NCBI GenBank assembly: GCA_963734115.1
Contig: CAVTFV010000006.1
Coordinates: 227,122 to 291,121, forward strand
Source: an uncultured Acidobacteriota bacterium
GTDB taxonomy: Bacteria > Actinomycetota > Acidimicrobiia > Spongiisociales > ZC4RG35
DNA: 64,000 nucleotides
Direction of reading: 5' to 3'
Below the pieces are notes generated by a model. That model did no database searches and had not been told where the DNA came from. It was given only the letters and a program-made list of their open reading frames with translations. How positions within the stretch are numbered: position 1 is the first letter of the stretch; each line of letters starts with the position of its first letter. The translations under genes were made by a program, and so were the position numbers. Of this stretch, positions 24,128-49,807 are shown piece after piece.

Positions 24128-24143
24128 CTGAACGGCTGTTCAG
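24128..24143. promoter_or_regulatory. Palindromic operator candidate CTGAAC-GGCT-GTTCAG in the divergent region between the acyl-CoA synthetase operon and the TetR gene
   Basis: Perfect 6-bp inverted repeat arms with a 4-bp spacer. Five further copies or variants of the same motif occur in other promoter regions of this window. Confidence 0.45.
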
Positions 24144-24201
24144 CGTACCGGCGGCGACTCGGCCGCCGCAATGGTCGCCGACGCTGTGCCAAGATTGCCG
24201 G

Positions 24202-24813
24202 GTGAGCCCTCGACCCAGCCTGACAGCGACCCGACGCAACGAGATCCTGGCTGCCACCAGCGCCACCATCGCCGACAGGGGATTGTGCGAGACCCGGATC
24301 GCCGATATCGCAGACCACATCGGGGCCAGCCCCGCCCTGATCCTCTACTACTTCCCATCCAAGGCCGCCCTGGTGACCGAGGCGCTCGTCTATCAGGACC
24401 AGATGTTCCACGAGGCGGTCAAAGGCGAGCTGGACAACGCGACGACAGCCGCTGCCAAGCTCGACATCCTCATAGAAGCCAGTTGCCCCAAGCCATCTCG
24501 TGGCAATGGAGAGCTCGATGGATGGGTGCTGTGGCCGGCCGCCTGGGAGATGTCACGGCACGACCCGACACTGGCCGCCGCCCGCGCCCGGCTCGACGAG
24601 TCATGGCGGGCTCAGATCGCGGCGATCGTCGAAGAGGGGATCGCCGCCGGCGAGTTCACAGACGTCGATGCCTCCGACTTCTCCATCCAGCTCGCCGCGC
24701 TACTCGATGGGCTCGCCATCGAGGTCATGCTGCGGGACCCCACCGTGGACGCGGCACGGATGCGAAAGCTGGCGTTCGACTTCGTGGAGATGGCGCTCAA
24801 TACCCGTGTTTGA
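24202..24813 (+). CDS. TetR/AcrR-family transcriptional regulator (203 aa)
   Basis: N-terminal HTH (RRNEILAATSATIADRGLCETRIADIADHIGASPALILYYFPSKAAL). Confidence 0.85.
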   Translation: MSPRPSLTATRRNEILAATSATIADRGLCETRIADIADHIGASPALILYYFPSKAALVTEALVYQDQMFHEAVKGELDNATTAAAKLDILIEASCPKPSRGNGELDGWVLWPAAWEMSRHDPTLAAARARLDESWRAQIAAIVEEGIAAGEFTDVDASDFSIQLAALLDGLAIEVMLRDPTVDAARMRKLAFDFVEMALNTRV

Positions 24814-24825
24814 CCGACGCGATAC

Positions 24826-24841
24826 CTGAACAGCGGTTTAG
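24826..24841. promoter_or_regulatory. Operator-motif variant CTGAAC-AGCG-GTTTAG between the tetR stop and the potD-like start
   Basis: One mismatch to the CTGAAC-N4-GTTCAG palindrome. Confidence 0.35.
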
Positions 24842-24868
24842 TGTCTCGCGTAGCGCCGAGGAGGAAAC

Positions 24869-26161
24869 ATGGCCTATCACCCCCGGGAGAACTGGATCCC
24901 TCAAAACAGGAAGAGGGTCTACACCCGCAGGGACTTCCTGCAGCGAGCGGCACTCCTCGGGATCGCCCTCCCCGCCCTACCCAGCCTGCTCGCCGCATGC
25001 GCTGACCGGGAAGGTGGCGAGTCGGCTGAGCTCGCCGTGGGCACCCCAGCCAGCCCGGTGCAGCAACCATTGTTCGACGACAACCCAGCCATCGAGTCGG
25101 GGCTGGAGCCCGAGGCCGGGCCTCTCCTGTTGTACAACTGGGAGGACTACCTGAACCCGGAGACCATTCCGCTCGCTGCGGAGGCGCTCGGCGTCGATAT
25201 CCAGGTGACCACCTTCGTCAACGAGGAGGAAGCCCTCGCCCGTCTCTCGTCCGGCGAGGTTCAGTTCGACGTCTGGTTCCCCACCTCACAGCGAGTCCCG
25301 GTGGCGGTCGCCGCATCTCTCATCCAACCTGTCAATCACGACTACCTGCCCAACCTCCAGGCCAACGTATGGCCGCAGCTGGCCGATCCCTACTACGACC
25401 AGGGATCCCGCTACACGGTGCCTTACGTGACCTACACCACGGGCATCGGGTGGCGAGTCGACCTCGCCGACAGCGCCGACATCGAGGGCCAGGCCAACCC
25501 CTGGGATGTCTTCTGGAACGAGAAATACTCCGGGATGATCGGCATGCTCGATTCCTTCACCGATGTGATACCAGTCGCCCTGTTCCACAACGGGGTGGCC
25601 GACCCATCGCAAGCCACCGAGGCCGAATTGGTCGCCGCCGGTGACGCCCTGGTCGAGTTGATCGATCTCGTCGACATCAGATATCGGATCGATGGCAGTT
25701 ATGCCGGCCTGCCCGAGGGGAGATACGCGATCCATCAAGCATGGTCAGGCGACCTGGTCAACTCCCAGTACTTCTGGCCTGGTGGGGAGGATGAGGGGAC
25801 CACGCGATACCTGTGGCCCGCCAAAAGCGAGGGGTCGACCACCAAGGGGGCGATATCGAGTGACACCATGACAGTGCTCAAGGGCTCAGAGCGCCCTGTG
25901 CTGGCCCATGCGTTCCTCAATTACATGCTCGACGAGGCCAATGCACTGAAGAATTTCGAGTACGTCGGCTACCAGCCGCCACAAAACGGCCTCACTTCCG
26001 AGTATCTGATCAGCGAGGAATGGCTCCTTCCGCATCTGGCACCGGCGCTGGTAGCACCTGAGGACTTCGAGTTGGACTCGGCCTGGGTCCAGGGCCCGCT
26101 CGACGCGGCTACCGAGGCGGCGTGGGTCGAACAATGGAATCGGGCCAACTCGGGTGGCTGA
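24869..26161 (+). CDS. ABC transporter substrate-binding lipoprotein, PotD/PotF (polyamine) family, with Tat signal and lipobox (RRDFLQRAALLGIALPALPSLLAAC)
   Basis: Intact 430-aa ORF. First gene of an SBP-permease-permease operon. Confidence 0.85.
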   Translation: MAYHPRENWIPQNRKRVYTRRDFLQRAALLGIALPALPSLLAACADREGGESAELAVGTPASPVQQPLFDDNPAIESGLEPEAGPLLLYNWEDYLNPETIPLAAEALGVDIQVTTFVNEEEALARLSSGEVQFDVWFPTSQRVPVAVAASLIQPVNHDYLPNLQANVWPQLADPYYDQGSRYTVPYVTYTTGIGWRVDLADSADIEGQANPWDVFWNEKYSGMIGMLDSFTDVIPVALFHNGVADPSQATEAELVAAGDALVELIDLVDIRYRIDGSYAGLPEGRYAIHQAWSGDLVNSQYFWPGGEDEGTTRYLWPAKSEGSTTKGAISSDTMTVLKGSERPVLAHAFLNYMLDEANALKNFEYVGYQPPQNGLTSEYLISEEWLLPHLAPALVAPEDFELDSAWVQGPLDAATEAAWVEQWNRANSGG

Positions 26162-26180
26162 CTCGGTCGGATAGAGGGTC

Positions 26181-27125
26181 ATGCCCACCAATCTCGCCTC
26201 TGGGGCCGAGTACGCGACGGTAGGGCAAAAAAGATGGGTGTGGCCTGGCTTTGCCCTTCCCGGTGTGCTCTGGCTGATTCTCCTCTTCCTGGTCCCGTTC
26301 TACGCGGTGTTTGCGATCGCGATGGGCCAGCTCGACCCGATTCTGCAGAGGGCCACACCGGAGTGGAACCCGTTCTACTGGGACCTGACCGTCATGGGCG
26401 AGGCCTTCGCCGAGCTGTTCGGCGGTCAGCTTGGCGTGATCGCCCTTCGAACCCTGGCCTATGTCTTCATCGCATCGCTCATCTGTGTCCTCGTCGGATA
26501 CCCGGTCGCATACTTCGTGTCGAGAAGGGCAGGGCGATGGCGTTGGCTGTGGCTGCTGTTGATCCTGGCGCCTTTCTGGATCAACTACCTGATGCGGATG
26601 ATGTCCTGGGTGAATCTGCTCAGCCCGGACGGTCAGGTCAACAGGTGGCTGACCACCATCGCAAGCTGGTTCTCCATCGAGTTCGTGCCGCCCGACTGGC
26701 TCGCCGGCAATCACGTCGTCGTCATCCTCGGGCTGGTCTACGGCTACATCCCGTTCTTCATCCTCCCTCTCTTCGCCGCCTTGGACCGGATCGATGAAGC
26801 CACGCTTGAAGCCTCGCGCGACCTCGGGGCCAACAATGCGCAGACCTTCTGGCGAGTGACCTGGCCACTGTCTCGAAACGGGGTACTCGGGGGCCTGGTC
26901 ATCATCATGCTCCCGATGTTCGGTGACTACTACACACCCAACCTCTTGTCGGGATCGCCTCGCACCCGGATGTACGGAAACACAATCGACCAATTCATCA
27001 ATCAGACCACCAGTGGGGGCGCGGTTGGCGCGGCCTTGACCATCATCCTGATGATCTTCATCGCCGGTCTGATGGTGTATTACCTCCGCTCGATCTCTCA
27101 GGCGTCGCAGGAGGCACGAGAGTGA
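26181..27125 (+). CDS. ABC transporter permease (PotB/PotH-like)
   Basis: Six predicted TM segments. ABC permease EAA-like region (IDEATLEASRDLGANNAQTFWRVTWPL). Confidence 0.85.
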   Translation: MPTNLASGAEYATVGQKRWVWPGFALPGVLWLILLFLVPFYAVFAIAMGQLDPILQRATPEWNPFYWDLTVMGEAFAELFGGQLGVIALRTLAYVFIASLICVLVGYPVAYFVSRRAGRWRWLWLLLILAPFWINYLMRMMSWVNLLSPDGQVNRWLTTIASWFSIEFVPPDWLAGNHVVVILGLVYGYIPFFILPLFAALDRIDEATLEASRDLGANNAQTFWRVTWPLSRNGVLGGLVIIMLPMFGDYYTPNLLSGSPRTRMYGNTIDQFINQTTSGGAVGAALTIILMIFIAGLMVYYLRSISQASQEARE

Positions 27126-28024
27126 CAACGACCAGCCCCTCACGGCTCCGGTCGGCGATTGCCAACCCCTGGGGCAAATCGCGGATGCTGCCTCTAGTCA
27201 CGCTGCTGTACGTCCTCTGGTCCATCATCCCGGTGGGAATAGCGGTCCTGTTCTCGTTCAATTCGGGTAGGTCGAGAAGTACCTGGCAGGGGTTTTCCAC
27301 TCGCTGGTACGTTGGTGATCCGGCTGCCGCAGAATCGGTGTTGTACGACCCCTCTCTCCGGTTTGCGCTCAACCAAAGCCTCAAACTGGCCATCCTGACC
27401 ATGCTCGTCGCGACTCCCATAGGAGTCGCCCTTGCGCTCGGTCTGGCGAGGTGGCGAGGACGAGGGGTCAAGGCGTCCAATCTGTTGATGCTGATCCCCC
27501 TGGTAACCCCCGAGATCGTGATGGGGGTGGCCCTGTTTCTGGTCTTCGCCGAGGTTTACGACTTCGTTCCCTTTGGAACCTGGACTCAGTTCCTGGGACA
27601 TGTCACGTTCTCGATTTCCTTTGTGGTGATCATCGTTCGGGGGCGTCTGTTTGCCATTGGCAGGGACTACGAGGAAGCCGCCATGGACCTTGGGGCTTCC
27701 CAATTCGAGGCGATGCGCCGCGTGCTCCTCCCCCTTCTCGCTCCAGCGCTTGTCGCCAGCCTCGCCATCGTCTTCGCCATCTCAATCGACGATTTCGTCA
27801 TCAGCCAATTCCTGATCGGGGGCGCGGAGACCGTGACCATCCCGGTGCAGCTCTACTCGGGTGCCCGACTTGCTCCGCCACCTTCCCTCAACGCCTTGGC
27901 CACCATCCTGATGGTGGTAACCATCGGCGCCATCACGATTGCCGGGCTTCTATTTCGCGCCCTGGGCAAACGACGAGGCGAAAGGGCCTCAGCCCTGGAG
28001 TCGGTGGCCGGTTTCGAGATGTGA
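27122..28024 (+). CDS. ABC transporter permease (PotC/PotI-like)
   Basis: Start overlaps the previous stop. EAA motif (YEEAAMDLGASQFEAMRRVLLPLLAP). Confidence 0.85.
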   Translation: MTTTSPSRLRSAIANPWGKSRMLPLVTLLYVLWSIIPVGIAVLFSFNSGRSRSTWQGFSTRWYVGDPAAAESVLYDPSLRFALNQSLKLAILTMLVATPIGVALALGLARWRGRGVKASNLLMLIPLVTPEIVMGVALFLVFAEVYDFVPFGTWTQFLGHVTFSISFVVIIVRGRLFAIGRDYEEAAMDLGASQFEAMRRVLLPLLAPALVASLAIVFAISIDDFVISQFLIGGAETVTIPVQLYSGARLAPPPSLNALATILMVVTIGAITIAGLLFRALGKRRGERASALESVAGFEM

Positions 28025-28027
28025 GGG

Positions 28028-28570
28028 TCAGACGGTCAATCTGACGATTGGCCTCGATTCGTTGCGGCGGATCAGCTCGACGAAGCCATGCTCGTCGAAC
28101 ATGCTCAACGTGCCGGTGAAATAGTCCACTGCGGAGCTGCGAGGGCCATCGACCGGGTACGCCTCGATGACTTCGGCCCCCTCGTGCCTGGCGAAAGCGA
28201 TGGCGGCGCTCAGCAGCCCTGCTCCGACGCCCCGCTTCCTGTAACCCGTGCGTACGACGAAGCAATTGATCGACCAGGGCTCCAAGTCGTCGACCCGCTT
28301 GAGCAGCCGGGACCGGTCGAGCGTCGGGAACTCGTGACGCGGGCCGACCTGGACCCAGCCGACCGGATCATCCCCGACGTAGCCAAGCAAGCCTGGCGGG
28401 CGTCCTTCGGCCGCCACCTCGGCGAATCGATCACGGTTGTCCCGCTTGTCTCCGAAACCATCGTCAGGTCTGCGCCAGTGCATACAGAAGCAACTTCTGG
28501 CGACGCCACGATCACCGAAGACCACCTCCATGTCGGGAAATCTGTCCGGGGTGAGAGGCCGGCTGGTCAT
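28028..28570 (-). CDS. GNAT family acetyltransferase (180 aa)
   Basis: Motif A region (GYRKRGVGAGLLSAAIAFARHEGAEVIEAYPV). Start chosen at the internal ATG (MTSRPL...). Confidence 0.65.
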   Translation of the reverse strand: MTSRPLTPDRFPDMEVVFGDRGVARSCFCMHWRRPDDGFGDKRDNRDRFAEVAAEGRPPGLLGYVGDDPVGWVQVGPRHEFPTLDRSRLLKRVDDLEPWSINCFVVRTGYRKRGVGAGLLSAAIAFARHEGAEVIEAYPVDGPRSSAVDYFTGTLSMFDEHGFVELIRRNESRPIVRLTV

Positions 28571-28610
28571 CAGCCCGAGATCGGTCTCGCTCGCGTGTGA
28601 CCAGGTCTTA

Positions 28611-28805
28611 CTAGGCACCCATCGGCTCCTCGGCCTCACAGTGTGGGCCGAAGACGAGCTCGATGATCTCCGCTTCGGACTCGGGGATCACCGGGCGTTG
28701 CCCCGGCTCGGGAGGTGCGTACCGCCACCAAAACTTGCGTAGCGATGTCTGTCGGCGCTCTTCGTCGAGGTGCCTGATCATCTCGAATCCTGTGCTGGTG
28801 AACAT
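28611..28805 (-). CDS. Small hypothetical protein (64 aa) immediately upstream of the GNAT gene
   Basis: ORF only. No recognisable motif. Confidence 0.25.
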   Translation of the reverse strand: MFTSTGFEMIRHLDEERRQTSLRKFWWRYAPPEPGQRPVIPESEAEIIELVFGPHCEAEEPMGA

Positions 28806-28889
28806 CCGACTTCCTTCCGACGACTACGGTCAACCGTATGTCATGATGCGGACAGGAACTGTCCGCATAACCAGAAAGAATCAGAACCC

Positions 28890-29843
28890 ATGGACAGCGC
28901 CGAACGTCTGCTCAAGCTCCTTGCCCTGCTCGAGGGACGTATCGACTGGACCGCCGACGAGCTGGCGAACCGTCTCGCGGTGACCCCGAGGACGGTGCGT
29001 CGTGACATCACCCGCCTCCGCAGCCTCGGCTACCCGGTGGAGGCTGTGGCCGGCCCCGGCGGCGGGTACCGGCTCGGAGCCGGGGGCAAGCTCCCCCCTT
29101 TGCTCCTCGACGACGAGGAGGCCCTGGCGGTGGCCCTGGGGCTCCGAGTGGCGACGGCGACGGCTGTAGGCGGTCTGGAAGTGGCGTCGCTATCTGCCCT
29201 GTCGAAGTTGGAGCACGTCCTTCCCCCGAGACTCCGTACCCAACTGGAGGACATCTCCGAGGCCACGGTGTCGACCGTGAGCACATCCGCATACTCCGTC
29301 GATCACGGGTCGCTCGCGGTGGCTGCATCGGCGGCACGCACCCGACAGAGGATGCGCTTCGGATACGTCGACAACCAAGGCCAAGTCTCTGAGAGACACA
29401 CCGAGCCGCTCCGGCTCGTTCACACCGGACGTCGGTGGTACCTGGTTGCCTTCGATCTCGATCGCGACGACTGGCGCACCTTCCGATTGGATCGTCTCTC
29501 CGAGCCCTGGGTGACAGGGATGCGATCCACTCGTAGGCCCGAACCGGACCCGGTCGAATTCGTCCAGCGGGGAGTCGCGATCGAGGCTTACGCTCAGCGC
29601 GCCGAGGTCAGGCTGGCGGCCTCGATGGACCACGTCGCCCACATGATCCCGGCCACCGTCGGCGCTCTGGAGGCACTGGACGCCGACACCACCCGTCTCG
29701 TCATCGGTGCCGATGACATGAGCTGGCTGGCGCGTTACCTGCTCAGCCTGCCCTGGGAGTTCGAGGTGGAATCACCCGAGGAGCTGAGCAAAGAACTGCG
29801 GAAGATCGGGCGTCGGCTTCTAGCCGCCCGTCACTCCTCCTGA
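28890..29843 (+). CDS. WYL-domain transcriptional regulator (N-terminal HTH + WYL ligand-binding domain, YafY-like)
   Basis: HTH (LLKLLALLEGRIDWTADELANRLAVTPRTVRRDITRL...GYPVEA) and WYL domain (RMRFGYVDNQGQVSERHTEPLRLVHTGRRWYLVAFD). Confidence 0.8.
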   Translation: MDSAERLLKLLALLEGRIDWTADELANRLAVTPRTVRRDITRLRSLGYPVEAVAGPGGGYRLGAGGKLPPLLLDDEEALAVALGLRVATATAVGGLEVASLSALSKLEHVLPPRLRTQLEDISEATVSTVSTSAYSVDHGSLAVAASAARTRQRMRFGYVDNQGQVSERHTEPLRLVHTGRRWYLVAFDLDRDDWRTFRLDRLSEPWVTGMRSTRRPEPDPVEFVQRGVAIEAYAQRAEVRLAASMDHVAHMIPATVGALEALDADTTRLVIGADDMSWLARYLLSLPWEFEVESPEELSKELRKIGRRLLAARHSS

Positions 29844-30940
29844 TCTTCCTCGTACTCGGGGTCCAGGTCCTCGGTGGCGGTCCCTGTCTCCGACACGATC
29901 CTGAGGGCGTCCTGCGGGAACTGGAGTGCGACCTTGTCGGGCCAGTCCCAGGCGAATGACCCACCCTGATTGGGGATGGTCACCTGGACCGTCCCCACCT
30001 CCTCGACGGTGACCAGGACATTGAGGAGTGGCCCGGCGAACACGACCCTCTCGATCTCACCCACCAGGATGTTCTCGCCGCCGAAGTCGGGGGCGTGGAT
30101 CCCAACACGCTCCGGGCGGATGCTCACGGTTACCTCTCCGGTCGCTCCGTCCCGGTCGACGCAGCCCAGCTCTCTGCCGCCCAGCCGGATTCGACCCGGG
30201 CCGACCGCCTCGGCATACATCAGGTTGGAGACACCGAGGAAGTCGGCGATATAGCTGGACCGAGGGGCCTCGTAGATCTCCGACGGCGTGCCCATCTGCT
30301 CGATCGTGCCCTCGGTCATGACTGCGATGCGGTCTGACATCGTCAGGGCCTCTTCCTGATCGTGAGTGACATAGATGAACGTGATCTCCAGATCCTCCTG
30401 GAGACGCTTCAGCTCGACCTGGAGCGCCTTGCGCAACTTGGCATCGAGGGCGCCCAGCGGCTCATCCAACAGCAGCACGGAGGGGTTCAACACGAGGGAC
30501 CGGGCCAGCGCGACGCGTTGCTGCTGGCCGCCGGACAGCTGGGTGGGCTTCCGGGACTCCATGCCGGTGAGACGCACCTTCTCGAGGGCGTCGGCCACCC
30601 GCCCCTGCTGCTCCGACTTGGGCACGTCCCTGTAACGAAGCCCGAAGGCGACGTTCGAGGCCACATCCATGTGCGGGAACAGGGCGTAGCTCTGGAACAC
30701 CGTGTTCACCGGCCGCTTGTGAGGAGGGGTCCCTGCCTGATCGGTCCCGTCGATGAGGATGGCGCCGCTGTCCGGCCGCTCGAACCCAGCAATCAGACGC
30801 AGCGTCGTGGTCTTGCCGCAGCCGGACGGCCCGAGCAGGGAAAAGAACTCGCCGTCCTCGATCCGGAGATTGATGTGATCGACCGCCGGGTTCTCCCCGA
30901 AGTACTTGGCCAGATCGACCAGTTCGACGACGCCGCTCAT
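29831..30940 (-). CDS. ABC transporter ATP-binding protein (PotA/PotG-like, with C-terminal TOBE domain)
   Basis: Walker A GPSGCGKTT, signature LSGGQQQRVALAR, Walker B LLLDEP. Confidence 0.9.
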   Translation of the reverse strand: MSGVVELVDLAKYFGENPAVDHINLRIEDGEFFSLLGPSGCGKTTTLRLIAGFERPDSGAILIDGTDQAGTPPHKRPVNTVFQSYALFPHMDVASNVAFGLRYRDVPKSEQQGRVADALEKVRLTGMESRKPTQLSGGQQQRVALARSLVLNPSVLLLDEPLGALDAKLRKALQVELKRLQEDLEITFIYVTHDQEEALTMSDRIAVMTEGTIEQMGTPSEIYEAPRSSYIADFLGVSNLMYAEAVGPGRIRLGGRELGCVDRDGATGEVTVSIRPERVGIHAPDFGGENILVGEIERVVFAGPLLNVLVTVEEVGTVQVTIPNQGGSFAWDWPDKVALQFPQDALRIVSETGTATEDLDPEYEEDQEE

Positions 30941-30964
30941 GAGTCGGGCGAGTCTACGGTCGGC

Positions 30965-32329
30965 TCATCCGCTGATGACGGCCGCAAAGCCGTCGAGGGT
31001 CTCCAGGTAACGGTCGATGTCCTCGACCGTGTGCTGGACCGAGATCAGCCACTGCTCACCCTTGCCCCACGGGGGCAGGAACACGCCGCGGTTGTACTGA
31101 TACAACCAGGCGGCTTGGGCGTAGCGGCCGTCGACGGCGAGGAAGTCGCGATAGGTGCGCATCGGCTCGGCGCAGTAGATGACACTGCCCTTGGCCCCGG
31201 CGGTCGCCACATGGGCAGTCAGGCCGTGCCGACCGACCACCTCGTTGGCGCCCTTCTCCATTCGGCTCTGGATCTGATCGAGATGTTCGTAGGTCTCTTC
31301 GACCATGACCTCGGTGAGCATCGCTTTGGCGGCGGCCATCGAGAGGGGGTTGCCGTTGAACGTGCCGACCTGCTCGTAGGTCCCGTCCACGATGTGGCTC
31401 ATCACCTCGTCGGTTCCACCGATTGCCGAGATGGGAAGACCCCCACCGAGGGCTTTGGCCAGACAGACGATGTCGGGCTGGACGCCAAAACGCCGGGTGG
31501 CTCCTCCCTTGCCCACTGTGAGACCCGTCTTGACCTCGTCGAAGGTCAGGATGGCATCGTGTTTCCGGGTCAGGTCACGGAGACCCTGGAGGAATCCGGG
31601 CTGAGGAAGCAAGATTCCGCAGTTCTGCAGGATCGGCTCGACGATTACCCCGGCGATCGTGCCCTCGTTTGCCTCGAAGAGCTGGCTCACCACGCCGAGA
31701 TCATTGAACGGCGCCACCAGGGCGAGATCGACGATCGCCTGGGGGATGCCACCACCCGCAGCAACGCTCTTCGGATGTGAGGCCGAACCGAGCCCGTCCT
31801 CGTTCCACACCGAGACCATCACGGAGTCGTGATGACCGTGGTAGCCACCCTCGAACTTGATGATCAGGTCCCGCCCGGTGATAGCCCGCATGAGATGGAC
31901 CGCGTCCATGGTCGATTCGGTGCCCGAGTTGCCAAACCGCCACATCGTCATCCCGTATCTCCGTGTGAGCTCCTCGGCGACGAGGATCGCGTCCGCCGTT
32001 GGTTGGGCGAAGTGCGTCCCTTTACGGACGCGCTCCGTGACAGCCGCAACCACGGCCGGATGGGCGTGTCCGGCGAGCATGGCGCCATAACCCCCGTGCA
32101 GGTCGACGTACTCGTTGCCATCCACGTCCCAAACCCTGGATCCCAGACCGCGATCGATCCATATCGGCTGCGGGTCCGAGATCTGCCAGCTAGAGGTGAC
32201 GCCCCCGGCCAATGAGCGGCCGGCACGGTCTCCCATCTCGGTCGCCTGCGGCGCCCGATCCAGAAAACTCCGCCGCTCTGTTGCGATCAAGTCATCGAGA
32301 GCCGAGACTTCCGCGTCCACGGAGGACAT
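30965..32329 (-). CDS. Class III (omega) aminotransferase, PLP-dependent (putrescine/GABA-aminotransferase-like)
   Basis: PLP-lysine region TFDEVKTGLTVGKGG. Fold-type I class III motifs. Start at the internal ATG 32329 (MSSVDAEV...). Confidence 0.85.
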   Translation of the reverse strand: MSSVDAEVSALDDLIATERRSFLDRAPQATEMGDRAGRSLAGGVTSSWQISDPQPIWIDRGLGSRVWDVDGNEYVDLHGGYGAMLAGHAHPAVVAAVTERVRKGTHFAQPTADAILVAEELTRRYGMTMWRFGNSGTESTMDAVHLMRAITGRDLIIKFEGGYHGHHDSVMVSVWNEDGLGSASHPKSVAAGGGIPQAIVDLALVAPFNDLGVVSQLFEANEGTIAGVIVEPILQNCGILLPQPGFLQGLRDLTRKHDAILTFDEVKTGLTVGKGGATRRFGVQPDIVCLAKALGGGLPISAIGGTDEVMSHIVDGTYEQVGTFNGNPLSMAAAKAMLTEVMVEETYEHLDQIQSRMEKGANEVVGRHGLTAHVATAGAKGSVIYCAEPMRTYRDFLAVDGRYAQAAWLYQYNRGVFLPPWGKGEQWLISVQHTVEDIDRYLETLDGFAAVISG

Positions 32330-32351: not shown

Positions 32352-32367
32352 CTGACTCGCTGTTCAG
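32352..32367. promoter_or_regulatory. Operator-motif variant CCTGA-CTCGCT-GTTCAGG in the divergent region between the aminotransferase and Rieske oxygenase 1
   Basis: Right half-site identical to the other sites. Left half-site lacks one A (CTGAC vs CTGAAC). Confidence 0.3.
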
Positions 32368-42290: not shown

Positions 42291-42340
42291 ACGCCCGCCG
42301 GGGTCAAGTACCCGCCTTGTGGGGCCGATTTCTTCCCGAC

Positions 42341-44145
42341 ATGGACTCTCTCTCCATGAAGAGAAGGCGCGTCCAGGAAGCGCAGCACGATACGGAGCGG
42401 CTCGCCGCCCTCAATGAGCTCTCCGCTGCGTTGTACGAATACGACTCTGCCGAGGCGGTGACGGTGGCCGACTCCGCAATCGCCCTCGCCGACGCTGTTG
42501 GAGACGGAGCTGCTCGCGCTTGGGCCCTTCACCACAAGGGCTGGGCGCTGAGCTCCATGGGTCGTCTCGACGACGCTCTCGACTCGCAACTGTCGGCCCG
42601 CGGTCAGTTCGAGCTGGAAGGGAACATGAGCGGCGTCGCCAATGCCCTGATGGCGATCGGCGACCTGTACGGGGATGTCGGGGACACCTCGACTGCACTG
42701 GAGTACCTGGATCGAGCCCGGGCACCTCTCAGGCTGGCCGACGACGAGCTCGGTGTGGGACTGCTGACGAATCTCACCGGGATCGCCCTGAGCCACGAGG
42801 CGAGGCACGAGGAAGCCCTCGATCTCTTCGAGCAGGCCGAAGCCGTGTATCTGCGGCTGGGAGATGAGCTGCGGGTGGGCACCGCGAAGATCAATCAGGG
42901 ATTCGAGCTTCTCGCCCTCGCCGCTGCAGGCAACGATGACGAACGAAAACAATCGATCGAGCGGGTCGGAGAGCTTGCGGCCGAGGTAGTTGAGAGGGGC
43001 GAGCGACTGGGAGACGACGGGCGACATACCACCGCCTACGGGAGGTCGCTGCGAGCCCACGTCCTCGCCGCCACCGGCCATGTCGACGATGCGATCGATG
43101 CGGCGGTGATCGCCGAGAACGAGGCCACATCCGGAGGACTCGACCAGCTGGCCGTCGAGCTCGCCCTGGATCGCGCCGGATGGCTATCGGCGCCGGCCGC
43201 AACGAAGAGGCGGGAATCCTCGTGGAGGAAGCAGCAGACCGCAGCAAGAGGCTGGACATGAAGCGGTTGCTGGTGAGGGCGACCGCTCTTCGGGCAGACC
43301 TGCTCGAGGCATTCGGCGACTATGCCGGGGCGCTGGCCTGTCACAGGGAGTACCACCGCCTCGACGGAGACCTGCACACTGATCAGGCGGAGCGACGGGC
43401 CAGTCTCGCCACTACGCGTTTCCAGGTCGAACGTGCTCGCCAAGAGGCCGAACTGGCGCGGGTGCGGGTATCCGAGCTGGAGGCGTTGGACCACGACAAG
43501 CGTGAGTTCCTGGCCAGCATCAGCCACGAGCTACGCACACCACTGGCGGCGGTCCTGGGATTCGCCAGCGAGCTATCCGACTCGTGGGACGTGTTCGAGC
43601 CTGAGGAGGCGCGCTCGCTGGTCCGCCTCATCGCCAGCCAGTCGGCCGATATCTCCAGCATCGTCGACGACCTGCTGACAGTGACGAGGCTCGAAGCGGG
43701 GACCATGACGTTCTACCCATCGGCGGTGGCCGTCCGAGAGCACCTGGCCGACATGGTCGAGACGTCAGGAAGGGAGTCCGGACGAAGCATCTCCTGGCGG
43801 GGCGACGCCGTCGTATGGGCCGATCCGAACCGTCTCCGGCAAATCGTCCGCAACCTCATCACCAATGCCATCCGCTACGGGGGCGAGGAGATCGCGGTAC
43901 TCGTCTCGTCCGATGCAACAGGGGCCAGCATCGAGATCAAGGACTCTGGCGGCCCGATTCCCCCGGGCCGGGTCGCGACCATGTTCGAGCCGTTCGTCCA
44001 CGCTGACAGCGGGGGCCGCACTCCCAACTCGGTGGGCCTGGGACTCGCCGTTGCGAGAAGCCTGGCCCGGATCATGGGTGGTGAGCTCGACTACCGACAC
44101 GATGGTGGATCCGTGTTCCGGCTCGCGCTGCCCGTACCGGACTGA
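42341..44145 (+). CDS. Cytoplasmic sensor histidine kinase with an N-terminal TPR-repeat region (HisKA + HATPase_c); one frameshift near 43190
   Basis: TPR-like region in ORF 42317..43261. Continues in ORF 43180..44145 with the H-box SISHELRTPL and ATPase motifs (NLITNAIRYGG; DSGGPIPP; GLGLAVARSL). Confidence 0.6.
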
Positions 44146-44151
44146 TCGCCC

Positions 44152-45116
44152 CTAGGCCGGGACTGCCCAACAGGCGGCTGCAGTGAGGGCGCCTACCGGC
44201 GTTGGCCCTGGGTCATCGGTGGGACATCGAGCCGCGATCTCCGGCGCGAGGGTCCCTGACTGGAGCAAAGGGCATCGGGGATGAAAACGGCATCCCGAAG
44301 GGATCCGGGCCGGATCTGGTATCTCCCCGATCAGGATCTGCTGCTCCATCTCCCTCGTCTCAGGTACCACCGACAGCAAAGCCCGGGTGTAGGGATGCCG
44401 GGGGTTCTCGAGGATCTGCTCGGTCGGACCCGTCTCGACAATCCGGCCCAGGTACATGACAGCGACTCGGTCGGCGATATTCCAGGCGAGACCGAGATCG
44501 TGGGTGACCACGAGGATGGCCAATCCGGTCTCGTCCACGAGACGACGCATCAAGGCCAGGATCTCGCCCCGGATGGATGCGTCGAGACTGGCCACCGGCT
44601 CGTCTGCCAGCAATAGGCGCGGCTCCATGACCATGGCCCCGGCGATGACGACACGCTGACGCTGACCCCCCGAGATCTCATGCGGATACAGGGGGAAGAA
44701 TCGCTCCGGTGGGCGAAGGCCGGCCCGCGACAGTGCCTGCGCCACCTGGTCCTGTTCGTTGCCGGCACCATGCTGGATGCGCAGTCCCTCGGCGACGACT
44801 TCGTAGATGGTCTGGCGGGGGTTCAGGGCGCCGGTGGGATCCTGGAAGACCATCTGGACGGTCGGATTGAAGATGGTCTGGACCTTCGGTCGCGCCGCCC
44901 TCCGTCCTCACTTTCGACCCTGATCTGACCGGAGGTCGGCTTCTGCAAGCCCTGGATGGCCCGGATCAGCGTCGTCTTCCCCGATCCCGACTCGCCGACC
45001 AGAGCCAGCACCTCGCCCGGCGATACATGCAGGGAGGCGCCATCGACCGCCCGAGCCGCCCCGAAGTGGACGTGCAGGTCCTCCACCTCGACCAGATTGG
45101 TCACACCAGCACGCAC
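44152..45116 (-). CDS. Peptide/opine-type ABC transporter ATP-binding protein (DppF/OppF-like); one frameshift near 44860
   Basis: Walker A GESGSGKTT in ORF 44823..45116. The remainder is in ORF 44152..44853 (signature ISGGQRQRVVIAGA; Walker B LLLADEP). Confidence 0.65.
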
Positions 45117-46063
45117 GCGGCACTCCTCTCCACGCCCGACGAACGCAACTCGGGCTCTGCCGGCAGACAGGCGTCATGGGCCAAGGGGCATCGAGGATGG
45201 AAAGGACACCCTTGGGGCAGGTTGCCGGGGGTCGGCGGGTCACCACCCAGGCCCGACGGCGCCATCCGCGAGGTGTCGTCACCGATCGTGGGAAACGCCG
45301 CGGCCAGGGCTCTCGTGTAGGGATGGGCGGCTTTCTCGAAAACGTCCCAGGCAGGGCCCTCTTCAACAATCCGACCTGCGTACATCACCGCCAGCCGCCG
45401 GCAGGCGTAGGTGAGCACCGAGAGATCGTGCGTTATGAACATCAAGGTCAGATCTCGCTCCTTTTTGAGATCGTCGAGCAAGGCCAGCACCTGGGCCTGG
45501 ACCATGAGGTCGAGTGCAGTGGTCGGCTCGTCGGCGATGAGGAGGAGCGGGTCGCAGGCCAGGGCCATGGCGATGAGCACCCGCTGTCTCTGGCCACCCG
45601 ACAGCTGATGTGGGTAGGAGTCGGCCCGGGCCGCGGGCAGGCCGACCCGCCTGAGGAGATCGACGACACGTTCGTTGGCCGCGCTCTCGTTGGCGGCGGT
45701 CTGGTGGACCAACATCGGCTCGGCGATCTGGTCGCCCACCGTCTGCACCGGGTTCAGCGCGTGAAGCGCCCCCTGGAAGATGATGGCCCCCGACGTCCAT
45801 CGCGCCGCTCTCAACCCTCCCGGAGTGAGGTGGAGGACGTCTTTCCCATCCAGGGTGATCTGCCCGGTTACTTCGGTGCCGGCTGGGAGGAGTCGGAGAA
45901 GCGCATTGGCCAGGGTCGACTTGCCGCAGCCGGATTCGCCGGCAAGACCGAGCGAATCTCCCTTCTCCACATCGAAACTCACCCCACGCACCGCCGGCAC
46001 GTCCCCACCGTGCCCGTGATATGTGACCATGAGATCTCGCACCGAGAGCATCGGCTCGCTCAT
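45101..46063 (-). CDS. Peptide-type ABC transporter ATP-binding protein (DppD/OppD-like)
   Basis: GESGCGKST. LSGGQRQRVLIAMALA. Start at the internal ATG 46063, overlapping the permease stop. Confidence 0.85.
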   Translation of the reverse strand: MSEPMLSVRDLMVTYHGHGGDVPAVRGVSFDVEKGDSLGLAGESGCGKSTLANALLRLLPAGTEVTGQITLDGKDVLHLTPGGLRAARWTSGAIIFQGALHALNPVQTVGDQIAEPMLVHQTAANESAANERVVDLLRRVGLPAARADSYPHQLSGGQRQRVLIAMALACDPLLLIADEPTTALDLMVQAQVLALLDDLKKERDLTLMFITHDLSVLTYACRRLAVMYAGRIVEEGPAWDVFEKAAHPYTRALAAAFPTIGDDTSRMAPSGLGGDPPTPGNLPQGCPFHPRCPLAHDACLPAEPELRSSGVERSAACVLV

Positions 46064-46953
46064 CGGCCCCGGCTCAGTCTCGGGTTGGCGATCTCCTCCA
46101 AGGTCCGTCCGATGAGGGTGAAGGCGAGGACCACCGCCAGGATGCCCAGACCGGCGGGGACGAAGTACCACCACGCGTTCAGCGACAGGGCGCCGTTGAC
46201 GAAAGCCTCCTCCAGGGTCTTCCCCCACGACGCGGCCGAGGGATCACCAAGTCCCAGAAACGCCAGAGTCGTCTCGGTGAGGATGGATATGGGAACCGCC
46301 AGCGTGGCGTTGGCCAGGATCAACCCCATCACGTTGGGCAGGATGTGACGGTTGACGATGTGGCTGCCGCTCGCCCCCAACGAACGGGCCCGATCTACGA
46401 AGAGCCGCTGTTTGACCGTGAGGACCTGGGCGCGAATGAGACGCGCGGTCGACGGCCATGAGGTGATCCCGATCACGAAGATGATGTTCCAGACGTTTCT
46501 CCCCAGGACCGAAGCCAGGACGATGGCGAGGGGCAGGAATGGGATGACGAGGAACCACTCGGTGAGCCTCATCAGGGCGGCATCGGGCCTGCCTCCGACG
46601 AATCCGGCGATGATTCCAACCACAGATCCGATGAGAATGGTCAACAACGTGGCTGCCAGCCCAACGAAGAGGCTGACCCGAGAGCCCCAGACGAATTGCG
46701 CCCACACCGATCGTCGGATGTAGTCGGTGCCCAGCGGGGCGAACTCACTTGGGGGCGCCCATTGCGGATTTCCTTGGGCTCGGGCGTACACCGGGCTCAA
46801 CTCCCTGGCGTCGGCCAGCAGCGGGGCGGCCAACGCCATCAAGACGAACAACAGCAGCACACCGAGGCCGATCATGCCTCCCCTCGAGCTGCGGAACTCC
46901 TTCCACACCCGGCCCGCGGTGGCACGTCGGCGCTGCATGGCGAGACTGGTCAT
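46060..46953 (-). CDS. ABC transporter permease (DppC/OppC-like)
   Basis: Six TM segments. BPD_transp_1 motif region. N-terminal OppC_N-like segment. Confidence 0.85.
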   Translation of the reverse strand: MTSLAMQRRRATAGRVWKEFRSSRGGMIGLGVLLLFVLMALAAPLLADARELSPVYARAQGNPQWAPPSEFAPLGTDYIRRSVWAQFVWGSRVSLFVGLAATLLTILIGSVVGIIAGFVGGRPDAALMRLTEWFLVIPFLPLAIVLASVLGRNVWNIIFVIGITSWPSTARLIRAQVLTVKQRLFVDRARSLGASGSHIVNRHILPNVMGLILANATLAVPISILTETTLAFLGLGDPSAASWGKTLEEAFVNGALSLNAWWYFVPAGLGILAVVLAFTLIGRTLEEIANPRLSRGR

Positions 46954-47876
46954 TGGCCCTCCACCCGCGGGTCGAGCCAGCTGTAGGTGAGGTCGGCGAT
47001 CAGGTTGAAGACGATCACCGCTGCGCTGAAGAGGAGGAAGAGCGCCTGGAGCATGGGGAGATCCGGGCCGCGGATGGCGTCGGCAGTCGCCTTGCCCAGC
47101 CCGGGCCAGGAGTACACCGCCTCCACGGCGATTGCCCCGGACAGGATGAACCCGAAGTTGATCGCTGTGAGAGTCACCACCGGCAACAAAGCGTTGGGCA
47201 CTGCATGACGATTGCGGACGACGACGTCGCGGAGGCCCTTGGCCCGTGCCACCGTGAGATAGTCCTCACCCATGACATCGAGCAGCGAGCTGCGGGTGAC
47301 CAGGGTGTACTCGCCGAGATAGGCCAGGGTCAGGGTCAGAGCGGGTAAGAACATGTGATAGGCCTGATCGGCGAGACGAGCGAGCCCGGTCTCGCCCGAT
47401 CCGGCGGTGGTGATCCCGCCCACCGGGAACCAACCCAGGAGGACGGCAAAGATGACCAGGAGGATCATGCCCAGCCAGAAATCGGGCATGGAGTAGAACA
47501 CCATCGTCCCGGAGGTGATGGAGTGGTCCTTCCACGTGTTCCTCCGCCAGGCCGCGATGATCCCGCCGATGGTGCCGATGACGGCGGACAGGATCGACGA
47601 GATCCCGATCAGGGCCAAAGTGGCCGGGATCGCGGCGACGATCTCGTTCCATACCGGCTGACGGCTCTGATAGGAGAGACCGAAGTTGAGCTGGGCCGTC
47701 TCCCTCAGGTAGAGCAGGAACTGGGTGCCAATCGGCTGGTCCAGCCCGAAAGCCACCCTCAGGTTGTCCAGCGTCTCCTGTGGCACGTTGCGGCCACGGA
47801 ACAGCGACCCGATCGGGTCGGTCTGCACCACGCGAAACAAGAAGAAGTTGACCACCAGGACGAAGACGAGCGTCAC
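46950..47876 (-). CDS. ABC transporter permease (DppB/OppB-like). The 5-prime end is probably longer, with a frameshift near 47880
   Basis: Body intact. Immediately upstream, in the -1 frame, RLIGRKVLGSL matches the canonical OppB N-terminus. Confidence 0.7.
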   Translation of the reverse strand: MTLVFVLVVNFFLFRVVQTDPIGSLFRGRNVPQETLDNLRVAFGLDQPIGTQFLLYLRETAQLNFGLSYQSRQPVWNEIVAAIPATLALIGISSILSAVIGTIGGIIAAWRRNTWKDHSITSGTMVFYSMPDFWLGMILLVIFAVLLGWFPVGGITTAGSGETGLARLADQAYHMFLPALTLTLAYLGEYTLVTRSSLLDVMGEDYLTVARAKGLRDVVVRNRHAVPNALLPVVTLTAINFGFILSGAIAVEAVYSWPGLGKATADAIRGPDLPMLQALFLLFSAAVIVFNLIADLTYSWLDPRVEGQ

Positions 47877-47949
47877 GAGGGAGCCCAGGACCTTGCGCCC
47901 GATTAGCCGTCCCCGCCCCCGTCCCGTCGTTCGATCCCTCGTCAGACGT

Positions 47950-49722
47950 TCACTCCCGTTCGTCGGCCGTAGAACGGTTCCGCATCGCCAAAAAGACTCC
48001 CGCGATCACTATCACCGCTGCAGCGATACCGCCCCAGAGGAGCCAGTTGATGCCGGAGCCGTCATCTGCGGCCGCCCCGATCGGGGTGAGCTCGATGTAG
48101 CCCGGCGAGGTGTTGTTGAAGATGACCGGCCCGATCTCGGCCGGCTGCCTTACCCAGCCCTCGAAGGTGTCGGTGCGGTAGGCCTGGAGATCGGGGGCGA
48201 GGAATATCGGTATGTAGATGGCGGATTCGTGGAACAGGGTGAGCATGTCGTGGACGATCTCGAGCCGGGCGTCCGGATCCACCTCCTGGTTCTGGGCCGT
48301 GTACATGGCGTCATACTCGGGGTCGAACCAGTTGGCGTCGTTGAAATTGCCCAACTCCCCCTCGGTGAAATTGACCAGCATCGGGTCGGGGTCTACGAAG
48401 GGCACCCAACCCCAATAAAAGGTGTCGTAGGTGCCGTCGACGATGACACCGAACAAAGCATCCTGGTCGTACGCCTCGAGAGTGACGCCGATGCCGATCG
48501 CCTCCATCCATCCCACCATCAAATCCCCGATCGGGCCCGCATTGTCGCCGTCGGTGTTCACCGCATGCCGGATCACGAGTGGGTTGGTCCCATCGGGCAT
48601 CTCCCTGATCCCGTCACCGTCCGAATCGAGATAGCCGGCGTCGTCGAGGATTTGGTTGGCCAAATCGGGGTCGTACTCGAGCCGGTCCTCCTCGGGGATC
48701 TCGGGAAGCCATTTCGGGTCTGCCGACGCGCTCACCGTCTCCAACCGAGAGGCATGGCCAAACTCCAGATCCTCGATCACTGCATCCCGATCCACCCCGT
48801 GGGCAATCGCCCGTCGCACGTTGATGTCGAGCAGCGCCGGATGAGGCTGACCCTCGGCTGCCCCGCCGTTGATGGCGATCTCGTCGAAGCCACCCTGATG
48901 ACCCTCGATGACCTCGATGTTCTCGTCCGCCTCGAGTGTGTCCCAGGAGCTGGCAGGAATGCTCTGCGCCGCATCGAGCTCACCCCGCTGCAGAGCGGCC
49001 ACCATCGCATCCGGATTCTCGAAAAGCCGGAAGATGATCTCGTCATAGGGAGGCTCCTCGCCTTCCCAGCCCCAATAACTGGGGTTGGCATCCATGACAA
49101 CGGTCTGGCCTGGGGTGAACTCTGACAGGACGAATGGGCCGCTTCCCACGCCGTCGTCGGCGGCGTACTGGGTCGCAGCGTCGTAGTCGGTTGCGATCGG
49201 CTCCCAAATGTGCTTGGGCACCAAATAGACGTCCATCGTGGGCAGCTTGGGATCGGGCACCGAAGAGACGAGCTGGACGGTGCGCTCATCGACGACCGTC
49301 GCCTCGATGTTCGCCACTGTCGAGATCTGGTTGTCCCACCCTTGTTCTCGAGCGGTGTTGATGTTCCAGACGACATCCTCGGCGGTGAGAGGCTCACCGT
49401 CTGACCAGGTCAGGCCTTCACGGAGGGTGTAGATGTATTCCAGCCCGGGCTGAATCTCCTCCCAGGATTCGGCCAGACCGGGCGTCGTGGCGAAATCATC
49501 TGCTGCCTTGTCGGTAAGCGTCGCGTACTGAAGGTTCCAGATCTCGTATACCGGCACGGTGTAGCCCGACGTCGGGTTGATCACCTCCCAGTCCTGGGTC
49601 AGCCCGATCCGAAGAGTGATTTGATCATCCTCCTCCTGGGCAGAGGCGACCGGGACCAGGGAAAGGGCAACCACGGCGGTAACCAGCGACACGACTAGAC
49701 GTCTCATCTTCTGACTCTCCAT
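47950..49722 (-). CDS. ABC transporter substrate-binding protein, family 5 (DppA/OppA-like, 590 aa), with signal peptide
   Basis: Signal peptide MRRLVVSLVTAVVALSLVPVASAQ. SBP_bac_5 fold size and motifs. Confidence 0.9.
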   Translation of the reverse strand: MESQKMRRLVVSLVTAVVALSLVPVASAQEEDDQITLRIGLTQDWEVINPTSGYTVPVYEIWNLQYATLTDKAADDFATTPGLAESWEEIQPGLEYIYTLREGLTWSDGEPLTAEDVVWNINTAREQGWDNQISTVANIEATVVDERTVQLVSSVPDPKLPTMDVYLVPKHIWEPIATDYDAATQYAADDGVGSGPFVLSEFTPGQTVVMDANPSYWGWEGEEPPYDEIIFRLFENPDAMVAALQRGELDAAQSIPASSWDTLEADENIEVIEGHQGGFDEIAINGGAAEGQPHPALLDINVRRAIAHGVDRDAVIEDLEFGHASRLETVSASADPKWLPEIPEEDRLEYDPDLANQILDDAGYLDSDGDGIREMPDGTNPLVIRHAVNTDGDNAGPIGDLMVGWMEAIGIGVTLEAYDQDALFGVIVDGTYDTFYWGWVPFVDPDPMLVNFTEGELGNFNDANWFDPEYDAMYTAQNQEVDPDARLEIVHDMLTLFHESAIYIPIFLAPDLQAYRTDTFEGWVRQPAEIGPVIFNNTSPGYIELTPIGAAADDGSGINWLLWGGIAAAVIVIAGVFLAMRNRSTADERE

Positions 49723-49791
49723 TCAGGTTTGACCTAGCGCAATGTATCCGTCTCGATCACCCTCTGACGCCGAATCGCCTGACCTTGAATC

Positions 49792-49807
49792 CTGAATGAC
49801 GATTCAG
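49792..49807. promoter_or_regulatory. Palindrome CTGAAT-GACG-ATTCAG in the divergent region between dppA-like and the aminomethyltransferase gene; variant of the CTGAAC-N4-GTTCAG motif
   Basis: Perfect 6-bp arms. Confidence 0.35.

Follow-up and report, generated by a model that had tools for sequence, protein, structure and literature searches.

A 16 bp palindrome, CTGAAC-N4-GTTCAG, recurs in promoter regions along a 64,000-nucleotide stretch of DNA from an uncultured bacterium of the Acidimicrobiia (contig CAVTFV010000006.1 of assembly GCA_963734115.1, positions 227,122 to 291,121; hereafter 'the window', numbered from its first nucleotide), and we conclude that this palindrome is very likely the operator through which a BetI-like repressor of the TetR family (gene at 24202-24813) acts, with binding predicted from the position of the element, its conservation beside the TetR gene in related genomes, and its similarity to a palindrome of the Escherichia coli BetI promoter. 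Six copies of the palindrome, at 24128, 24826, 32352, 36743, 40001, and 49792, had been predicted from inspection of the window; a search of the window with the pattern CTGAAC-N4-GTTCAG finds all six at exactly these coordinates and finds a seventh match, with two mismatches, at 7013. The number of matches by itself exceeds chance only weakly: seven matches with two or fewer mismatches are observed vs. 2.54 ± 1.61 in shuffled sequences, and seven matches are attained by 3 of 100 shuffles. Because the mismatch count is too weak to decide, we used in its place a position weight matrix (PWM) trained on distant loci, and, because the excess in count is modest, the case rests on position, motif quality, and conservation.

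The comparison set consisted of 80 loci (L001-L080) from Acidimicrobiia species-representative genomes, with TetR identities to the window's TetR ranging from 98% to 44%; the loci were fetched by use of two TetR helix-turn-helix (HTH) peptides taken from an orthologue alignment, and the recognition helix therefore is common to all. The PWM (24 nt, 158 sites) was trained on only those loci in which TetR is at most 85% identical to the window's, with the window and its close relatives excluded. The results indicate that the window contains eight PWM matches of at least 14 bits vs. 0.07 expected, with a maximum of two in 100 Markov simulations, corresponding to an approximately 100-fold enrichment. 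The eight matches comprise the six predicted sites and two weaker sites that the original prediction had missed, at 49711 and 19572 (O1-O8; Table 1). The pattern match at 7013, separated from the site at 19572 by a wide gap in score, reaches only 5.1 bits and was rejected as a chance match. When all 6-N(0-10)-6 palindromes of the intergenic segments are enumerated without bias, CTGAAC-N4 comes out as the top pattern, with its register shifts as the runners-up.

The positions of the matches are as distinctive as their scores. Coding and non-coding calls were based on homology-based annotation and a curated gene map, a mask based on third-position G+C content and open reading frames (ORFs) having been dropped because its over-extended N-termini masked the site at 32352 (G+C content of the window, 63.8%). 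By the curated map, non-coding DNA accounts for 1343 of the 38582 bp of the interval 15925-54506, or 3.5%, and all eight matches of at least 14 bits lie within or at the edge of this 3.5%. The six predicted sites had been described as lying outside coding bodies, and this description holds; the only boundary case among the six is the site at 40001, where the TGA doubles as the stop codon of the peptidase gene upstream. Six positions drawn at random would all be non-coding with a probability of about 5e-9 (arithmetic from the gene map, with generous padding, at ~4% non-coding).

Phylogenetic footprinting, one of the checks proposed with the original prediction, bears the prediction out. A site of at least 13 bits is present beside the TetR gene in 74 of the 80 loci, and the same promoter slots recur. 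The nearest locus, L001, is only about 92% identical in DNA sequence to the window. The set has a common synteny: an acyl-CoA synthetase (ACS) gene on the minus strand; the TetR gene, a substrate-binding protein (SBP) gene, and two permease genes on the plus strand; an ATPase gene and a class-III aminotransferase (AT3) gene on the minus strand; a Rieske oxygenase gene on the plus strand; and acyl-CoA dehydrogenase (ACAD) and aldehyde dehydrogenase (ALDH) genes on the minus strand. Sites recur in the ACS|TetR slot in 52 loci (orthologues of O1, found also in other loci with different upstream neighbours), in the TetR|SBP slot in about 50 loci (orthologues of O2), and in the AT3|Rieske slot in about 37 loci (38 sites; orthologues of O3), and further sites occur upstream of ACAD/ALDH, GcvT, and DppA genes, including in loci with a different gene order. 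Likewise, matches with two or fewer mismatches precede the TetR start by 45-80 bp in most loci (farther in some of the most distant), appear again 15-26 bp past the TetR stop, and again ~7.5 kb downstream, the last being the counterpart of the site at 32352. The consensus is the same in four tiers of TetR identity, from ≥86% down to 44-55%. When the ACS|TetR spacers and the AT3|Rieske spacers are aligned, the operator stands out as an unvarying block amid diverged sequence, for the latter spacer at TetR identities down to 46%. The site upstream of the TetR gene persists next to five or more upstream neighbours of different kinds (ACS, amine oxidase, enoyl-CoA hydratase, SBP, and an unassigned gene). 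At most 3 of ~210 matches of at least 13 bits fall inside homology-defined coding sequences, all in a probably over-extended ACAD N-terminus.

The sites also define the full element. Positions outside the search pattern are conserved, with 75% of sites having the central GC and 65% having A at −2 and T at +19; because these positions were not used for site selection, their conservation establishes that the real element is ~22-24 bp: tAtc-CTGAAC-nGCn-GTTCAG-gaTa. At five promoters, those of the SBP, Rieske-1, ACS, ALDH, and Rieske-2 genes, a −10-like TAnnnT sequence overlaps or adjoins the operator. If these predicted boxes are functional, the operator would occupy the classical position of a repressor that acts by promoter occlusion. 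Thus O1, separated by 9 nt from the minus-strand ATG of ACS and by 58 nt from the GTG of tetR, overlaps a −10-like TACGCT of the predicted ACS promoter (minus strand, 24142-24147), of which the flanking GTA is kept in relatives. O2 lies 12 nt past the tetR stop and 27 nt ahead of the SBP ATG; its GTTTAG variant forms a −10-like TAGTGT at 24839-24844 that overlaps the last 3 nt of the operator, and TAnnnT is present at offset −2 in 40 of 50 orthologues, so that the conserved GTTTAG 'mismatch' of the SBP-operon operator is accounted for by the −10-like TAGnnT that overlaps it there. O3, at 22 nt from the ATG of the aminotransferase gene (32329, minus strand) and 38 nt from that of Rieske-1 (32406), is followed by a −10-like TACACT at 32370-32375 that starts 3 nt beyond the operator, with TAnnnT at +3 in 24 of 35 loci. 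O4, 36 nt from the ALDH ATG (minus strand), has a −10-like TAGTGT 3 nt away on the minus strand, at 36734-36739; its orthologue scores 30.8 bits in L082 and carries a 1 bp spacer insertion in L081, and sites upstream of ACAD/ALDH genes are present in at least 13 other loci. O5 adjoins a −10-like TACCCT (40018-40023), which is 1 nt after the operator and 6 nt ahead of the Rieske-2 ATG. O6 is 69 nt from the dppA ATG (minus strand) and 43 nt from the GcvT TTG, lying 11 nt upstream of a −10-like TACAGT (49819-49824); its orthologues reach 26.8 bits (L081) and 22.6 bits (L082), and GcvT and DppA genes are targets in rearranged loci as well.

The two weaker sites also have counterparts in other loci. 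O7 is kept in L081 (17.5 bits), L082 (15.4 bits), and L084 (12.1 bits), where the dppA-start site is the only one of the DppA|GcvT pair. O8 is kept, with sequence variation, in L001, L002, L004, L005, L009, and L012; its right half-site is poor, and its function is uncertain.

At the TetR gene itself the geometry differs. A predicted extended −10 element, of the form TGnCAnnAT, is kept in orthologues of 60-89% TetR identity, and its spacer to the operator varies by ~25 nt. From this box, and from the similarly placed box of the Rieske-2 gene, each 6-7 nt before the start codon, the tetR and Rieske-2 mRNAs would be leaderless. Relative to the predicted tetR start, the operator centre is at about −66 for the clade to which the window belongs and at about −40 for the clade of 60-69% TetR identity, a difference due to the variable spacer. 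Since the site at 24128 overlaps the ACS −10 box and is ~66 nt upstream of the predicted tetR start, we consider it primarily an ACS operator. One copy had been placed in the TetR gene's own divergent promoter; its location in the spacer stands, and the autoregulation of tetR that this location would imply is doubtful.

The TetR protein is the evident candidate binder, as had been proposed, and its adjacency to the motif in the 74 genomes and the BetI-like form of the operator support this assignment. The protein has 203 residues, with matches to Pfam PF00440 (TetR_N, 4.3e-11, residues 15-60) and PF13977 (TetR_C_6, 7.1e-21), and has full-length homology to solved TetR structures, including the helical C-terminal domain for ligand binding and dimerisation; an HTH, a length of ~200 residues with a C-terminal domain, and a palindromic operator of 15-30 bp next to the gene together place it within the TetR family. 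Pfam and NCBIfam scans show no second TetR-family gene in the window, and this protein is the only regulator that constantly adjoins the motif, rearranged contexts included. According to the mechanism that we propose, a TetR dimer would bind the ~22-24 bp inverted repeat, which overlaps or adjoins predicted −10 boxes at six or more promoters within a gene island of ~30 kb, and bound TetR would block RNA polymerase until a pathway-related small molecule, probably an amine of the quaternary, N-methylated, or polyamine type or a compound derived from one, binds the C-terminal domain and frees the repressor.

Other explanations of the palindrome have to be weighed. The element might be a real operator bound by another protein, either the WYL/HTH regulator encoded at 28770-29843 or an unlinked factor, with TetR as a regulated neighbour. 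A homologue of the WYL-domain regulator is present inside the island in 29 loci, all 29 of which contain sites; but in the 30 loci with a downstream flank exceeding 6 kb and no WYL homologue the median is still three sites, the GNAT/WYL divergent spacer (28640-28769) contains no site, TetR is the constant neighbour, and the motif fits the architecture of BetI-type operators. We therefore consider another binder unlikely. That TetR binds the element but activates, or acts dually, at some promoters, such as those of tetR and dppA, appears quite unlikely, since BetI and most TetR-family members are repressors and since the overlap or adjacency of the operator with the −10 box at five promoters is the position of a repressor. 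Activation would be consistent with the O1 centre near −66 from the predicted tetR start and with O6, which lies ~60-70 nt upstream of a candidate dppA −10 box. A precedent is LuxR/HapR, described in one report as a TetR-family activator as well as repressor (PMC2628434).

Because any palindrome can fold, the sites might act at the level of RNA, as hairpins or terminators, or might be extragenic palindromes of the repetitive (REP-like) type, and two of the six sites indeed fold better than shuffles (z −3.5 and −3.25). However, three of the six fold like shuffles (z −0.09 to −0.70), with one marginal (z −2.1); no T-tracts or terminator-like sites are found in a scan of 24000-24900; and the sites are located upstream of genes or in divergent spacers, with none in spacers that are convergent or lie within an operon (21001-21271 and 47877-47949, for example). 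Moreover, the arms are kept in sequence, without compensatory changes, and the deviations CTGACT and GTTTAG break pairing yet are conserved. These observations make an RNA-level or REP-like function very improbable. Chance or compositional recurrence, for which the count of 7 vs. 2.5 expected and the match at 7013, indeed a chance match, might be cited, is effectively refuted by the ~100-fold PWM enrichment, the non-coding location, and the presence of the motif in 74 of 80 genomes with diverged spacers.

The interpretation of the palindrome as the operator of the BetI-like TetR repressor is itself opposed by several observations. Six of the 80 loci have no strong site near the TetR gene; among the exceptions, L074, with no island genes near TetR, and L075, with only an ACAD gene, look like paralogues. 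The co-occurrence of motif and TetR was measured in TetR-bearing loci only, all with the same recognition helix, and the host organisms are uncultured. Autoregulation of tetR is not evident in the window's clade, where O1 lies at about −66, although this point is uncertain. No −35 elements were identified, a scan of 24000-24900 for the sigma-70 consensus being empty, so that the promoter predictions rest on the conserved TAnnnT boxes. TetR does not reach the equivalog cut-offs of BetI, and most of the enzyme names likewise come from matches under their own cut-offs. The Rieske-2 site is absent from five of seven orthologous junctions, and the Rieske-2 operator is absent in all loci in which its module lies away from the TetR island (L085-L090).

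The last point was assessed with loci around Rieske-2 homologues (L081-L090), which were scanned with the PWM for the three rightward sites. The TAnnCT box is kept at all seven orthologous peptidase/Rieske-2 junctions, whereas the operator is found only in the window and in L084 (15.1 bits), and the left half of O5 is in part made up of the conserved peptidase gene end, ...EWA-stop. We rate the site at 40001 as a lineage-specific, weaker member of the regulon; the inclusion of the Rieske-2 operon among the targets in the original prediction thus stands for the window and L084 and does not extend to most orthologous junctions. In L085-L089, the peptidase S15, Rieske-2, sarcosine-oxidase-type, and DppABCDF genes (window 38013-49722) occur as a separate module without the operator, which suggests that the set is a mobile functional module recruited into the regulon in some lineages. 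In L086 and L087 (7946-8507), which represent one lineage, a PemK-type toxin gene and a small upstream ORF stand between the peptidase S15 and Rieske-2 genes; genes for an AbiEi-domain protein and for a phage T4 gp19-like protein are close by.

Table 1. Palindrome sites, predicted target operons, and genes of the window. Mismatches are to CTGAAC-N4-GTTCAG; gene assignments are from Pfam and NCBIfam scans of window ORFs. BADH, betaine aldehyde dehydrogenase.
Feature	Position	Strand	Sequence, location, or family match
O1	24124-24147 (core 24128-24143)		CTGAACGGCTGTTCAG; ACS/tetR divergent spacer; 0 mismatches; 29.7 bits
O2	24826-24841		CTGAACAGCGGTTTAG; between tetR stop and SBP start; 1 mismatch; 23.8 bits
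O3	32352-32367		CTGACTCGCTGTTCAG, extended arms GTATCCTGA/TCAGGATAC; aminotransferase/Rieske-1 divergent spacer; 2 mismatches; 29.0 bits
O4	36743-36758		CTGAACCGCCGTTCAG; upstream of ALDH-ACAD operon; 0 mismatches; 24.0 bits
O5	40001-40016		CTGAACCGCCGTTCAA; overlaps peptidase S15 stop codon, 13 nt before Rieske-2 ATG; 1 mismatch; 20.0 bits
O6	49792-49807		CTGAATGACGATTCAG; dppA/GcvT divergent spacer; 2 mismatches; 28.4 bits
O7 (new, weaker)	49711-49726		CTGACTCTCCATTCAG; overlaps dppA start codon and ribosome-binding site; 17.0 bits
O8 (new, weak candidate)	19572-19587		CTGAATGGCGAATCAA; glutamine-synthetase-like/amino-acid permease divergent spacer; 15.0 bits
Predicted extended −10 of tetR	24187-24195	+	TGcCAAGAT; 6 nt before GTG
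Predicted target operon: ACS, then enoyl-CoA hydratase	21272-24118	-	
Predicted target operon: PotD/PotF-like SBP and two ABC permeases	24869-28024	+	Pfam SBP_bac_8, BPD_transp_1; weak PotF/PotD matches; synteny kept
Predicted target operon: class-III aminotransferase, then ABC ATPase	29831-32329	-	
Predicted target operon: Rieske-1, then DUF1801	32406-34081	+	
Predicted target operon: BADH-like ALDH, then ACAD	34086-36706	-	
Predicted target operon: Rieske-2, then sarcosine-oxidase-type flavoenzyme	40030-42290	+	
Predicted target operon: DppFDCBA (DppABCDF-type peptide ABC transporter)	44152-49722	-	Pfam SBP_bac_5, BPD_transp_1, OppC_N, ABC_tran, oligo_HPY
Predicted target operon: GcvT, then amine-oxidase/CrtI-family	49851-52653	+	
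ALDH	15925-17355	-	
SDR	17352-18161	-	
Glutamine-synthetase-like	18128-19507	-	
Amino-acid permease (split)	19666 to about 21000	+	
Enoyl-CoA hydratase	21272-22069	-	Pfam ECH_1
NDP-forming ACS (split over several frames)	22066-24118	-	Pfam CoA_binding_2, Succ_CoA_lig
TetR	24202-24813	+	TetR_N and BetI-type TetR_C_6
GNAT	28028-28639	-	
WYL/HTH regulator	28770-29843	+	
ABC ATPase	29831-30940	-	Pfam ABC_tran and TOBE_2
Class-III aminotransferase	30965-32329	-	Pfam Aminotran_3; NCBIfam transaminase / GSA-aminomutase-like matches, all below cut-off
Rieske oxygenase 1 (GbcA-like)	32406-33782	+	Pfam Rieske, Ring_hydroxyl_A; GbcA 198 bits vs. 670-bit cut-off
DUF1801	33677-34081	+	
ACAD	34086 to about 35258	-	Pfam Acyl-CoA_dh domains
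BADH-like ALDH	35255-36706	-	Pfam Aldedh 1.3e-172; NCBIfam BADH 567 bits vs. 669-bit cut-off
Amine-oxidase fragment	36835-37686	-	
Peptidase S15 (read as CocE/NonD-type domain pair)	38013-40004	+	
Rieske oxygenase 2 (GbcA-like)	40030-41130	+	GbcA 177 bits, below 670-bit cut-off
Monomeric sarcosine/N-methyltryptophan-oxidase-type flavoenzyme (DAO)	41127-42290	+	NCBIfam N-methyl-L-tryptophan oxidase 286 bits, above 257-bit cut-off
TPR histidine kinase (split)	42317-44145	+	
GcvT-family aminomethyltransferase	49851-51050	+	Pfam GCV_T, GCV_T_C; NCBIfam below cut-off
Flavin amine-oxidase/CrtI-family oxidoreductase	51058-52653	+	Pfam Amino_oxidase; NCBIfam below cut-off

The comparisons support, as the conserved core of the predicted regulon, the ACS/enoyl-CoA hydratase, PotD-like uptake, aminotransferase/ATPase, divergent GbcA-like Rieske-1, and ALDH/ACAD operons; the Dpp-type transporter and the GcvT-family gene would be frequent members, and the Rieske-2/sarcosine-oxidase-type operon a lineage-specific addition (Table 1). 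The family matches point to amine uptake and catabolism, and the island also contains flavin amine oxidases and the set of acyl-CoA synthetase, dehydrogenase, and hydratase. The SBP match to PotD/PotF is far below cut-off, and, of the enzyme names tabled, only that of the sarcosine-oxidase-type flavoenzyme passes its cut-off. Because most family matches fall below curated cut-offs, we do not name the substrate of the pathway. The multi-operon amine-catabolism regulon of the original prediction is thus upheld by comparative genomics in its extent, and its labels 'polyamine' and 'demethylase' are mostly below cut-offs. A route from amine to aldehyde to acid to acyl-CoA, continuing in a β-oxidation-like manner and with an N-demethylation side module, is plausible from the predicted gene functions. 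A more specific reading, which we put forward only tentatively and hold to be rather doubtful, is that TetR might be the master switch of a conserved island of ~30-35 kb with at least eight operons that would encode an undescribed catabolic route for methylated or poly-amines. The route would proceed from PotD-like uptake through a GbcA-like Rieske oxygenase of new specificity, aminotransferase, ALDH, ACS, and ACAD to enoyl-CoA hydratase, with Dpp, the CocE-type hydrolase, sarcosine oxidase, and GcvT forming a side module for demethylation. If this reading is correct, the operator map would delimit the pathway and would help in a screen for the inducer.

Several further features of the window and its relatives were noted. 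Downstream of the GcvT and amine-oxidase genes, and possibly in the same operon, a 460-residue ORF (52710-54092, plus strand) has coding-like composition without a Pfam match. In L064, L065, L068, L076, L078, and L080 (TetR identity, 44-46%), a flavin amine-oxidase gene replaces the ACS gene beside tetR, and the spacer contains two operators. Two further genes have no motif site: one at 10571-14179 (plus strand) for a 1202-residue protein in which a double zinc ribbon is combined with adenylate/guanylate cyclase and AAA ATPase domains and TPR repeats, and one, upstream of the island, for an ECF sigma factor at 5402-5878 (minus strand). Several genes are broken into overlapping ORFs in different frames, namely those for ACS (22066-24118), the permease (19666-20956), the amine oxidase (36835-37950), the kinase (42317-44145), and DppF (44152-45101). 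These genes are intact in relatives, in which others are split: L001 and L028 encode ACS in one frame, and L081 has one kinase gene of 596 residues. The pattern suggests indel errors in long-read metagenome-assembled genomes (MAGs), not true pseudogenes. TetR homologues number in the hundreds, nearly all from uncultured Acidimicrobiia in soil metagenomes. Many of the nearest relatives (L001, L002, L004, L005, and others) are deposited as 'uncultured Acidobacteriota bacterium', while their TetR and island are 74-98% identical to MAGs labelled Acidimicrobiia/Actinomycetota; the record labels look inconsistent. A search of a plasmid collection with 10 kb of the island returned short ABC-ATPase matches only and no close plasmid relative.

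The results provide a well-supported regulon map (operator, PWM, core targets, and peripheral targets) for a catabolic island for nitrogen-rich compounds that is conserved in dozens of species-level Acidimicrobiia lineages. To our knowledge, there is no experimental genetics for these uncultured soil Acidimicrobiia. The TetR ligand would offer a short route to the substrate of the GbcA-like Rieske oxygenases and of the rest of the pathway, and the TetR/operator pair might serve as a new orthogonal repressor/operator part; no paradigm is changed. A literature search yielded no earlier description of the palindrome or of a comparable Acidimicrobiia/TetR/polyamine regulon; a literature match for Rv3066 proved to be mutagenesis primers only and was set aside.

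Among characterised regulators, the nearest relative of the window's TetR is BetI, the choline-responsive repressor of betIBA/betT in E. coli, which is its best NCBIfam match and with which it shares a TetR_N HTH and a BetI-type TetR_C_6 domain. The relationship is distant: TetR is only 26% identical to E. coli BetI and fails both equivalog cut-offs, scoring 77.3 bits vs. 201.3 and 70.8 bits vs. 118 (TIGR03384 / NF001978). The nearest solved structures by sequence, the TetR regulators 4kwa, 4jnn, 4nel, and 4ich (E about 1e-21, residues 12-197), are structural-genomics entries whose molecule names carry no function and which say nothing on mechanism. The operators can be compared directly. The BetI operator sequence was taken from the E. 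coli genome and from a primer in PMC7058928: the E. coli betI-betT spacer contains the element TTGATTGGACGTTCAA, TTGATT-GGAC-GTTCAA (aTTGATT-GGAC-GTTCAAt), and the same element is present in the BetI-gate promoter primer, that is, in a BetI-repressible promoter (PMC7058928). By the Acidimicrobiia PWM, this element scores 17.3 bits, a score reached by 0.7% of shuffles, and it is the unique best match in the 8 kb bet region, the next best scoring 4.8 bits. Because the PWM singles out the BetI-promoter palindrome in the bet region, we conclude that the Acidimicrobiia element is BetI-like; the operator class thus appears to match the regulator class. Both elements are 6-N4-6 palindromes of the TGA..-N4-..TCA type (CTGAAC-nGCn-GTTCAG here vs. 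TTGATT-GGAC-GTTCAA in E. coli), both lie in a divergent spacer beside the regulator gene, and in both systems the targets belong to quaternary or methylated amine metabolism, here including a BADH-like ALDH.

The differences are equally clear. With choline added, the betI-betT spacer is the only site that BetI retains in E. coli (PMC5934670), whereas at least 6-8 operators are present here, at predicted uptake and catabolic operons, in contrast to the osmoprotectant synthesis of E. coli. Linkage to betA, betB, and betT is lacking: the ORFs of 15.9-54.5 kb include no homologue of BetA (GMC-type choline dehydrogenase) or BetT (BCCT transporter), and the BADH-like ALDH is under its cut-off. The host, unlike E. 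coli, belongs to an actinobacterial lineage, with predicted −10-only, partly leaderless promoters. In breadth the system recalls other TetR-family repressors of Actinobacteria, KstR and KstR2 (cholesterol catabolism) and AmtR (nitrogen), which act at a short palindrome before many catabolic or uptake operons and whose regulons were defined largely through conserved promoter-region motifs. The operator sequences, ligand domains, and pathways of KstR, KstR2, and AmtR differ from those of the present TetR, and the likeness is at the level of the TetR family. A BetI-like TetR, a palindromic operator, and a local multi-operon regulon make up a conventional system, one notable for its breadth and its conservation.

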